Shown here: positions 1 through 214 of the stretch, piece after piece
Numbering within the stretch: the first letter of the stretch is position 1
How the letters are laid out: every line of letters starts with the position of its first letter
Source: Escherichia coli
Lineage (GTDB): Bacteria > Pseudomonadota > Gammaproteobacteria > Enterobacterales > Enterobacteriaceae
Length of the DNA stretch: 214 bases
Reading direction: 5' to 3' (one strand)
Assembly (NCBI RefSeq): GCF_003334405.1
Contig: NZ_QOWM01000077.1
Translations under genes and position numbers: made by a program
Notes under the pieces: model-generated
The model's database searches: none
The model's input: only the letters and a program-made list of their open reading frames with translations
What the model was told of the DNA's origin: nothing

Positions 1-46
1 TCATCCTCATGAGCTGCAGATGCAAAAAAGCCTGCTCGTTGAGCAG
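1..46. repeat. Direct repeat copy 1 (exact 46/46 match to 169-214; period 168 bp); abuts the window start, so true repeat length is at least 46 bp
   Basis: Base-by-base comparison of 1-46 with 169-214 gives zero mismatches. Seen directly in sequence. Confidence 0.95.
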
Positions 47-214
47 GCTTTTCGAATTTGGTCGGTGATAGAGGATTACTCGCCACTTCGTGGCTCGCCC
101 TGCGGGCCGTTGCTGGCGCAACGTTCTCTCGCTTCGCTCGAGTCGAACCTCCCTGCCCCCGGAGGTTCTCATCCTCATGAGCTGCAGATGCAAAAAAGCC
201 TGCTCGTTGAGCAG
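2..214 (+). CDS. Stop-free reading frame spanning the whole window (register of ATG at 20-22 and 188-190); an open-frame observation, not a supported gene call
   Basis: All 71 codons in this register (2-4 through 212-214) are sense codons. Plus-strand stops occur only in the other two frames (TGA at 10, 40, 178, 208; TGA at 66 and TAG at 69). One unit from ATG 20 translates to MQKSLLVEQAFRIWSVIEDYSPLRGSPCGPLLAQRSLASLESNLPAPGGSHPHELQ (56 aa). Against coding: third-position GC is 33/56 (59%), the same as bulk GC; the frame runs through the terminator hairpin; no resemblance to any protein family I recognise. Confidence 0.12.
24..52. terminator. Intrinsic (rho-independent) terminator-like hairpin, bidirectional: A6, 8-bp GC-rich stem, 3-nt loop, T4
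   Basis: aaaaaa(24-29) gcctgctc(30-37) gtt(38-40) gagcaggc(41-48) tttt(49-52). The stem arms are perfect reverse complements, and with the flanking A/T the inverted repeat is 12 bp perfect (26-37 with 41-52). Minus-strand reading gives hairpin then U6 (complement of 24-29), the stronger orientation. Plus-strand reading gives hairpin then UUUUCGAAUUU, a weaker interrupted U-tract. Confidence 0.6.
82..123. other. Cluster of three adjacent short perfect stem-loops (potential structured RNA segment; strand undetermined)
   Basis: gccac-ttc-gtggc (82-94; 5-bp stem, 3-nt loop); gccc-tgc-gggc (97-107; 4-bp stem, 3-nt loop); cgttgc-tggc-gcaacg (108-123; 6-bp stem, 4-nt loop). All arms are perfect reverse complements. 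Function is inferred only. Confidence 0.4.
146..167. promoter_or_regulatory. 7-bp stem-loop pairing CCTCC (anti-SD-like) with GGAGG (Shine-Dalgarno-like), upstream of ATG at 177
   Basis: aacctcc(146-152) ctgccccc(153-160) ggaggtt(161-167), perfect 7-bp stem with 8-nt loop. GGAGG at 161-165 lies 11 nt upstream of ATG 177-179 (the copy of ATG 9-11). The structure is seen directly; a regulatory role is speculative. Confidence 0.3.
169..214. repeat. Direct repeat copy 2 (exact match to 1-46); abuts the window end
   Basis: Identical to 1-46 at offset 168. The window therefore holds 1.27 copies of a 168-bp unit. Confidence 0.95.
192..214. terminator. Second copy of the terminator-like hairpin, truncated by the window end (A6, left arm, loop, 6 nt of right arm)
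   Basis: aaaaaa(192-197) gcctgctc(198-205) gtt(206-208) gagcag(209-214), identical to 24-46. Lies inside the terminal repeat. Confidence 0.5.

Follow-up and report, generated by a model that had tools for sequence, protein, structure and literature searches.

A 214-nucleotide stretch of Escherichia coli DNA, referred to here as the window, contains a dense run of short perfect inverted repeats between positions 82 and 167. Does this run encode a structured RNA, and is that RNA a new one? The original prediction proposed a folded, noncoding RNA that would be read from the minus strand as far as a U6 terminator, and it recognized no known RNA in the sequence.

We counted nonoverlapping, perfect hairpins with stems of at least 4 bp and loops of 3 to 8 nt. 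Positions 82 to 167 hold five such hairpins with 26 stem base pairs, compared with 6.7 ± 4.0 bp in dinucleotide-preserving shuffles, none of which (0/5,000) reached 26. The predicted density of hairpins is therefore genuine. The hairpins found were the following.

82-94: GCCAC/GTGGC, 5-bp stem, loop of 3
97-107: GCCC/GGGC, 4-bp stem, loop of 3
108-123: CGTTGC/GCAACG, 6-bp stem, loop of 4
133-147: TTCG/CGAA, 4-bp stem, a weak hairpin
145-168: 8-bp stem, loop of 8

The first four lie exactly where they had been placed; the last, given previously as 146-167, actually spans 145-168. Folding energy was far less striking. Compared with shuffled sequences, the minimum free energy (MFE) of 82-167 had a z-score of -1.76 for the minus strand and -0.86 for the plus strand; the z-score was -2.24 for the whole Rfam match described below and reached about -3.9 only with the terminator included. 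Because folding energy alone is so much less distinctive, the question of RNA structure was decided by the Rfam match and by covariation.

Identity and genomic position of the hairpin-rich stretch

When both strands were scanned with Rfam cmscan, a full-length match to the RtT RNA family (RF00391) was found on the minus strand at positions 59-192. It covers model positions 1-130 of 130 and scores 101.3 bits (E = 6.3e-22), against a gathering score of 45 for the family. Scanning the genomic locus against Rfam recovered the same match, and its MFE fold consists of the same set of helices as those discussed below: an outer helix, an arm helix, and four core hairpins. The orientation of the match supports the earlier choice of the minus strand.

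Many E. coli genomes, K-12 MG1655 among them, contain the window with 100% identity; it is the reverse complement of positions 2532-2745 of the K-12 locus that we call L001, between eptB and dppA. The tRNA-Pro (CGG) gene at this locus, which we take to be proK, occupies L001 2443-2519, and the window begins 12 nt past it. The RtT match itself begins 35 nt after the tRNA and on the tRNA's strand, which is the distal position in a tRNA operon. RefSeq already carries a feature named "RtT sRNA" at L001 2554-2687 in K-12. The RtT properties found here are the score, the tRNA-distal position, the tRNA 3' end, the tandem repeat, and the conserved structure. We conclude that the hairpin-rich stretch is the catalogued RtT element of K-12 behind proK; it is real, but it is not new.

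Hence, the earlier statement that no known RNA is present was wrong, since an Rfam match and a RefSeq annotation both exist. Hairpin density and covariation would suit a previously unknown structured RNA, but the match to a curated Rfam family is full length and scores over twice the gathering threshold, and the site is annotated as "RtT sRNA," which leaves that reading with practically no chance. The part of the prediction that called the stretch noncoding and folded fared well, with the RtT match, covariation, and frame-shifting indels in relatives all in agreement. So did the proposal that the unit runs to a U6 terminator: a 12-bp stem is found with its U6 at 24-29.

Other families were considered for the same DNA. 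ARAGORN found no tRNA genes in the window, the Rfam tRNA model had no match there, and a cloverleaf with an anticodon arm is absent; the tRNA reading was rejected. The Rfam scan also gave no REP/BIME match inside the window; the REP element (naRNA4, 69 bits) lies outside it, at L001 2781-2860. AaHKsRNA22 (RF02902), from Aggregatibacter, resembles the element in its order of hairpins and in the motifs GAACGUUG..CAACGGCCC..GGGCGAG..GAGUA of the cmscan alignment. The proK RtT is nonetheless not a member of that family, because the window's score of 21 bits falls short of the family's gathering score, 39.8.

Architecture of the proK unit and its relatives

The window is written on the strand opposite the gene and contains one and a quarter units of the RtT repeat behind proK. 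The period is exactly 168 nt, such that positions 1-46 and 169-214 are a direct repeat; the K-12 proK locus as a whole has 1.6 units of 168 bp. Each unit joins a 5' arm, antisense to the T-arm, to the T-arm's 5' half, a four-hairpin core of 66 nt, and a copy of proK's final 18 nt together with its trailer and terminator. Read along the minus strand, the parts are as follows.

192-214, minus strand: 3' part of proK's own intrinsic terminator; hairpin cut by the end of the window, U-run at 192-197, reported as a terminator-like site in the scan
177-191, minus strand: RtT leader, GCAUCUGCAGCUCAU; poorly conserved between genera in the alignment
161-176, minus strand: 5' arm, GAGGAU-GA-GAACCUCC (DNA GAGGAT-GA-GAACCTCC); near reverse complement of the tRNA-Pro T-arm
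143-152, minus strand: GGAGGUUCGA (DNA GGAGGTTCGA); 10 nt identical to proK, comprising the 5' strand of the T-stem and the first five bases of the T-loop
77-142, minus strand: RtT core, 66 nt, from the Rfam alignment, fold, and covariation; four consecutive hairpins at 126-142, 108-123, 97-107, and 82-94
59-76, minus strand: AUCCUCUAUCACCGACCA (DNA ATCCTCTATCACCGACCA); identical to the final 18 nt of proK
24-58, minus strand: copied proK trailer (53-58) and intrinsic terminator (arms 41-52/26-37, U6 at 24-29); identical to the terminator after proK
1-23, minus strand: truncated next unit, a direct repeat; it continues in the genome as far as GGAGGTTCGACTCGA, where a REP element cuts it off

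The proK gene itself ends in ...GGAGGTTCGA/ATCCTCTATCACCGACCA, followed by a 6-nt trailer and a terminator with a 12-bp stem and U6. The copy in the window, at 26-52, has a perfect 12-bp stem (inverted repeat, 100%) with U6 and is an intrinsic terminator. Our pattern scan detected the second, cut copy at 192-214 but missed this one at 24-58, only because its U-run is taken into the stem by A-U pairing. In the genome the next unit continues over L001 2723-2777 and gives way to REP/naRNA4.

Inverted repeats and the MFE fold agree on how the arm pairs: 171-176 with 71-76, forming the outer helix, and 161-168 with 145-152. A loop of 8 nt separates the arm (161-176) from the T-stem copy (143-152). 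At the other end, the 18 nt at 59-76 comprise the end of the T-loop, the 3' strand of the T-stem, the 3' strand of the acceptor stem, the discriminator base, and CCA. The 10-nt and 18-nt identities to proK flank the core, and the core therefore sits where the T-loop of the tRNA copy would continue. The unit thus shares 10 plus 18 nt with proK, including the CCA end, but differs from a tRNA in having no D-arm, no anticodon arm, and no 5' acceptor strand.

Is this layout peculiar to proK? In K-12, four annotated RtT elements lie behind tyrT/tyrV, one behind proK, and one behind lysQ. Rfam-level matches also occur within the lysT operon. Every copy that we compared (Pro, Tyr, and Lys; E. coli, Klebsiella, and Salmonella) ends in the last 18 to 19 nt of its own tRNA, including CCA. 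The 5' arm follows suit. In Pro copies, the partners are GAGGAU with AUCCUC and GAACCUCCG with CGGAGGUUC; in Tyr copies, GGGGAAGGAU pairs with AUCCUUCCCC; in the Lys copy of Arsenophonus, GUACAGGAU pairs with AUCCUGUAC; and the arm of the E. coli lysQ copies reverse-complements GCAGGTTCGAAT exactly. The tyrT operon of Salmonella and Kosakonia opens with a "gene" that has decayed, a tRNA-Tyr with anticodon GCA and a broken acceptor stem that holds the core in its T-loop.

Among the closest known systems is the tyrT repeat (RtT/rttR). Repeats of 178 bp at tyrT were reportedly described by Egan and Landy in 1978, by Rossi et al. in 1981, and by Bösl and Kersten in 1991. Like the proK copy, the tyrT element is a full-model RF00391 match with the core hairpins, lies behind a tRNA gene on that gene's strand, ends in the last 18 to 19 nt of its cognate tRNA, and is tandemly repeated. 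The two differ in host tRNA (Tyr or Pro), in period (178 or 168 bp), and in copy number (3 to 5 at tyrT, 0 to 3 at proK). Each proK unit has a copy of the intrinsic terminator, whereas the tyrT units have none. The 82-94 hairpin is GCCAC/GUGGC at proK and AGCGC/GCGCU at tyrT, complementary in both cases, and both arm helices of the proK copy carry Pro-specific bases. In the lysT-valT-lysW-valZ-lysYZQ operon, the layout after lysQ is like that at proK (terminator, unit, and terminator copy), with a unit that ends in the 3' end of tRNA-Lys and of which one copy is annotated in K-12. The lysT-operon copies differ from proK in their lower Rfam scores (47 to 61 bits). The lysQ copies have GCCGC-UCG-GCGGC as the counterpart of the 108-123 hairpin and a 5' arm that is the exact reverse complement of the 5' strand of the T-stem plus the T-loop; the copies internal to the operon have no 5' arm.

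From these comparisons, RtT units appear to be tRNA copies interrupted in the T-loop. One tentative reading, which we rate as less likely than not, goes beyond repeats confined to tyrT and sees RtT elements as a family of interrupted tRNA 3' halves that either spread as a cassette through GGTTCGAATCC or act as a decoy displaying an uncharged tRNA end. The 66-nt, four-hairpin cassette would be placed between T-loop bases A58 and A59 of the tRNA copy, behind an inverted T-arm copy that would re-adapt to each host tRNA (Pro, Tyr, or Lys). If so, either a small cassette would move between tRNA genes by way of the near-universal GGTTCGAATCC sequence, or the RNA would be selected as a decoy of an uncharged tRNA 3' end on a helix, for instance for RelA or for an enzyme acting on tRNA ends. 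We found no description of this interrupted architecture in the searchable literature, which does not take in the older papers. Literature on proK together with tyrT or repeats, and on rttR, offered only passing mentions.

Conservation, copy number, and covariation

At the level of sequence, RtT is more conserved between genera than the spacer next to it. Over the 118 nt that extend from the arm to CCA, identity to E. coli is 93 to 97% in Citrobacter, Enterobacter, Superficieibacter, Klebsiella, and Salmonella, whereas the adjacent 50 nt of trailer, terminator, and spacer are only 64 to 90% identical in the same genera; for the tRNA, identity is 100%. The terminator copy that follows RtT matches, in most species, the terminator of the species' own proK, which suggests that the repeats are still exchanging sequence. 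Superficieibacter has a decayed second terminator and an intact core.

Copy number varies within E. coli, in which the proK locus comes in three sizes, with 0, 1, or 2 units. K-12 has one full unit, CFT073 and O157:H7 have none, and NRZ95651 has two. CFT073 and O157:H7 are shorter by exactly 168 bp and keep the order proK-terminator-arm-GGAGGTTCGACTCGA-REP. Salmonella has two units at proK and Klebsiella three, for an overall range of 0 to 3. Unequal crossing-over between the 107-bp direct repeats probably accounts for such changes. The proK-type core is present in about half of 5,426 complete E. coli genomes, and RtT at proK is dispensable, since about half of the genomes lack it.

Does natural variation among copies preserve the hairpins? 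RtT copies were taken from E. coli (proK, tyrT, and lysT operons), E. albertii, two Citrobacter, two Enterobacter, Superficieibacter, Kosakonia, Shimwellia, Klebsiella, Salmonella, and Arsenophonus. A scan of genome contigs with the 15-base pattern GCGAGAGARCGTTGC returned at least 120 loci, which were mostly chance matches, including some in Vibrio and Moritella, because a 15-base pattern is too short; cmscan confirmed about a dozen of these loci as real. In phage and plasmid collections, the matches that we inspected were misfiled chromosome fragments or unverified low-coverage contigs and gave no sign of mobile carriage; the chromosome fragments served as extra species only.

In a MAFFT alignment of 19 copies, 86% of the cells of a six-helix structure were paired, against 32 to 39% when partners were slid by 1 to 3 columns. 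The covariation score was 0.147, compared with 0.093 in shuffles, and none of 500 shuffles reached the observed value. With 46 distinct copies, 87% of cells were paired and 18 pairs changed on both sides, whereas shuffles averaged 10.1 such pairs (0/500 reached 18); these counts lean towards structure, because the alignment was model based and fitted to it. We conclude from the aligned copies that the hairpins covary across 46 relatives drawn from seven genera and three tRNA operons (tyrT, proK, and lysT).

The helix at 82-94 is the clearest case. All five of its pairs change on both sides, and the variants include GCCAC/GUGGC, AGCGC/GCGCU, GGAGC/GCUCC, GGCGC/GCGCC, GUCGC/GCGAC, and GAC/GUC. 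The 97-107 hairpin varies through G-C, G.U, and A-U pairs. The 108-123 stem is invariant in most copies, in part because the search pattern fixed one of its strands, and is replaced by GCCGC-UCG-GCGGC in lysQ copies. The weak hairpin at 133-147, although present in the window as predicted, is not kept in relatives, where CGAA becomes CGCC, CGTC, or similar. The hairpin that is conserved is the overlapping one at 126-142, which in RNA sense reads CUCGAGC-GAA-GCGAGAG with a tandem G.A; the tandem G.A/A.G occurs in 40 of 46 copies, and the hairpin is fully paired in Enterobacter asburiae. In the proK copy, 34 of 36 pairs are Watson-Crick.

When the Rfam consensus was laid on the 19-copy alignment, its outer helix was supported and its 108-123 hairpin was kept. 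Its two long-range helices showed no covariation in that alignment and were broken in the proK type. By covariation, the local-hairpin picture of the original prediction is therefore better supported than those two helices. Which strand carries the selected fold? Wobble pairs numbered 46 G.U in the sense strand against 36 A.C (that is, G.U on the other strand), and 18 against 17 in a second count. There is no strand bias, so that selection for pairing might in principle act on DNA or on the other strand. The sense strand is favored only by the tandem G.A, the GNA triloops, the orientation of the tRNA, and the terminators.

Expression, function, and competing explanations

Our preferred reading is that the window is a tRNA-derived RtT repeat behind proK that is transcribed by read-through and processed to an RNA, which we consider likely. 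RNA polymerase reading through the first proK terminator would transcribe the unit, and transcription would stop at the second terminator copy. Enzymes of tRNA 3' processing would trim the transcript at the tRNA-like trailer or at CCA, giving an RtT RNA of about 135 to 170 nt. In this RNA, the outer helix would pair the antisense arm with the tRNA-derived strand and leave ...CACCGACCA-3' unpaired as a tail that resembles the end of uncharged tRNA-Pro. A product of ~170 nt is plausible by comparison with the tyrT rtT RNA, which is about 171 nt long. What counts against expression is that RtT at proK sits behind a strong intrinsic terminator (12-bp stem, U6); in addition, a pattern scan found no promoter-like site in the window.

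3'ETS-leuZ is a regulatory RNA that is cut from the spacer of a tRNA transcript, lies before the terminator, and acts as a base-pairing sponge. The proposed proK RtT RNA would resemble it as an RNA released by tRNA processing from the trailing part of a tRNA operon transcript. It differs in position: 3'ETS-leuZ, the sponge, precedes its terminator, while the proK RtT follows one. 3'ETS-leuZ is listed as an sRNA (PMC12306157). For RtT itself, the tyrT rtT RNA is cited as experimentally shown in PMC3318445; a discrete RNA that processing frees from the tRNA operon transcript is reported for tyrT only. RtT RNAs have been seen by RNA-seq in Klebsiella (PMC4147364). Overexpression of RttR gave no biofilm or motility phenotype (PMC4606813), and the function of RtT has been called unknown (PMC7542023). 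A mobilome preprint ascribed a tyrT/rttR signal to RNA/DNA heteroduplex artefacts and not to circular DNA. Perhaps RtT RNA mimics the 3' end of a tRNA and titrates a factor that reads uncharged CCA ends? This idea is speculative, and we hold it to be doubtful. It would agree with the one phenotype reported for the tyrT rtT RNA, namely an altered response to amino-acid starvation (Bösl and Kersten, 1991, as cited in PMC7542023 and PMC3318445).

Might RtT at proK instead have no RNA function, being a DNA-level repeat left as a recombination or insertion scar in a duplicated tRNA 3' end? As proposed, gene conversion would keep the likeness to the tRNA, unequal crossing-over would vary the number of copies, and the hairpins would be inherited from the insert. 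The presence of 0, 1, or 2 copies per strain, with about half of E. coli lacking any, suits this explanation, as do the position behind a strong terminator with no promoter-like site and the wobble pairs without strand bias. In the 0-copy allele of CFT073, the arm that remains has drifted (3 changes), and the decayed tRNA-Tyr copies of Salmonella and Kosakonia hold the core in their T-loops. However, gene conversion within one genome cannot keep identity between genera, and the 93 to 97% identity of RtT across six genera, next to a spacer of 64 to 90%, therefore speaks against a mere repeat. Compensatory changes that preserve the helices, a 5' arm that in Pro, Tyr, and Lys copies alike matches the cognate tRNA, and the detection of RtT RNAs in Klebsiella weigh in the same direction, and we judge a DNA repeat unlikely. 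Another candidate is a remnant attachment site of an integrative element that targeted the T-loop of proK. tRNA integration sites do show a break in homology inside the T-loop and a duplicated tRNA 3' end, as found here. But no allele examined has an integrase or an island, and the same core stands at three tRNA operons with an antisense arm, a part that is absent from att scars; this origin is very unlikely.

A role in termination or insulation would also require no released RNA: the hairpins and second terminator would serve as a backstop against read-through from the strong proK promoter into the REP element and dppA. Each proK and lysQ unit does have its own copy of the host tRNA's terminator, one that at proK matches the species' own in most species. 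Yet the tyrT units have no intrinsic terminator, the second terminator of Superficieibacter has decayed though the core is intact, and natural 0-copy strains retain the first terminator; generic hairpins, moreover, would not need 93 to 97% sequence conservation. We think it quite improbable that insulation explains the element. Finally, could the unit encode a small peptide rich in arginine, as the tyrT repeats do with Tpr? A 120-amino-acid open reading frame (L001 2553-2915) runs through the unit in a frame homologous to the 33-amino-acid tpr frame, and it is open through the whole unit because 168 is 56 × 3. One-base indels shift this frame in Citrobacter (GGGGGCAAGAGG) and Superficieibacter (GCGCAGC), however, the start codon is not conserved in orthologues, and variation tracks base pairing and not codons. 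Given these indels and the lost start codon, the frame is not conserved; a Tpr-like gene was rejected, and we give a peptide almost no credence.

Hence, the feature is real, structured, conserved, and already known and annotated. Its value as a discovery is small, because it belongs to a curated RNA family that is annotated at this exact locus, and what interest remains lies in its function and in its tRNA-specific architecture. Among E. coli RNAs without a known function, RtT was one of the earliest to be described. Since strains carry 0, 1, or 2 copies, the proK RtT offers a natural experiment, and the comparison of copies yields a secondary structure with better support than the present consensus of Rfam. 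Each copy is organized around the T-arm and 3' end of its own tRNA, which narrows the candidate mechanisms to tRNA-end mimicry or recombination between tRNA genes.

Structure of the RtT core

We examined the RtT secondary structure in A1, a MAFFT alignment of 19 copies. Covariation was absent from the two long-range helices of the Rfam consensus (RF00391), and both helices are disrupted in the proK type. The same alignment showed covariation in two local hairpins that the consensus leaves unpaired. Since the local hairpins covary and the long-range helices do not, the Rfam structure may need revision.

Three of the four loops in the RtT core, the 66-nt stretch at window 77-142, are GNA triloops with a C-G closing pair; such triloops are very stable in single-stranded DNA too. 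The hairpin at window 126-142 (minus strand) contains GCGAAGC, and its tandem G.A/A.G mismatch is kept in 40 of the 46 distinct copies of a separate, model-based alignment.

Reading frame and REP element at proK

Two features accompany the repeats at the K-12 eptB-proK-dppA locus (L001):

L001 2553-2915: 120-aa ORF spanning the RtT repeat
L001 2781-2860, strand opposite proK: REP element (Rfam match to naRNA4/CssrE, 69 bits)

The frame of the ORF is homologous to tpr, the 33-aa ORF of the tyrT repeats. It stays open across the repeat because the unit is 56 x 3 nt long and lacks a stop codon; orthologues do not conserve the ORF. The REP element lies about 35 nt past window position 1 in the genome. 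Immediately next to it is the third RtT unit, which is truncated, and the REP element may be the cause of this truncation.

RtT relatives at other loci

Nine PLSDB and INPHARED records (CP132641.1, CP018654.1, CP123491.1, CP088432.1, CP088669.1, LR134125.1, CP125156.1, AFYI01000003.1 and OR850888.1) are filed as plasmid or phage. We rejected this filing: they are unverified contigs or chromosome fragments, the latter covering the purU-tyrT-narI, tolB-pal-lysT and eptB-proK loci. Relatives were located as follows:

L126 3657-3805: decayed tRNA-Tyr with RtT core, Salmonella
L118 9854-10002, minus strand: decayed tRNA-Tyr with RtT core, Kosakonia
L129 2898-3066, 3393-3559, 3823-3948, 3979-4104: RtT-family copies, E. 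coli lysT-valT-lysW-valZ-lysYZQ operon
L134 2774-2899: RtT-family copy, same E. coli operon
L012 ~1894-1935: terminator copy behind RtT, Citrobacter werkmanii

In Salmonella and Kosakonia, the tyrT operon opens with this decayed tRNA-Tyr copy, directly after the promoter. It has anticodon GCA, has lost acceptor stem complementarity and has a T-loop into which the RtT core is inserted.

The lysT-operon copies end with a tRNA-Lys 3' end. Two of them follow lysQ, at a period of 156, and each has its own copy of the lysQ terminator, an arrangement also seen at proK. The internal copies bear the Tyr-type arm remnant GAAGGAT, which suggests RtT transfer between tRNA loci. The C. werkmanii terminator copy resembles the E. 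coli proK terminator, unlike the species' own, and thus hints at horizontal replacement of the RtT unit.

AaHKsRNA22, an Aggregatibacter sRNA in Rfam, aligned with window 65-153 (minus strand) at a sub-threshold 21 bits. Because the two have an identical hairpin order and motifs in common in this alignment, RtT-like cores may occur in Pasteurellaceae under a different family name.
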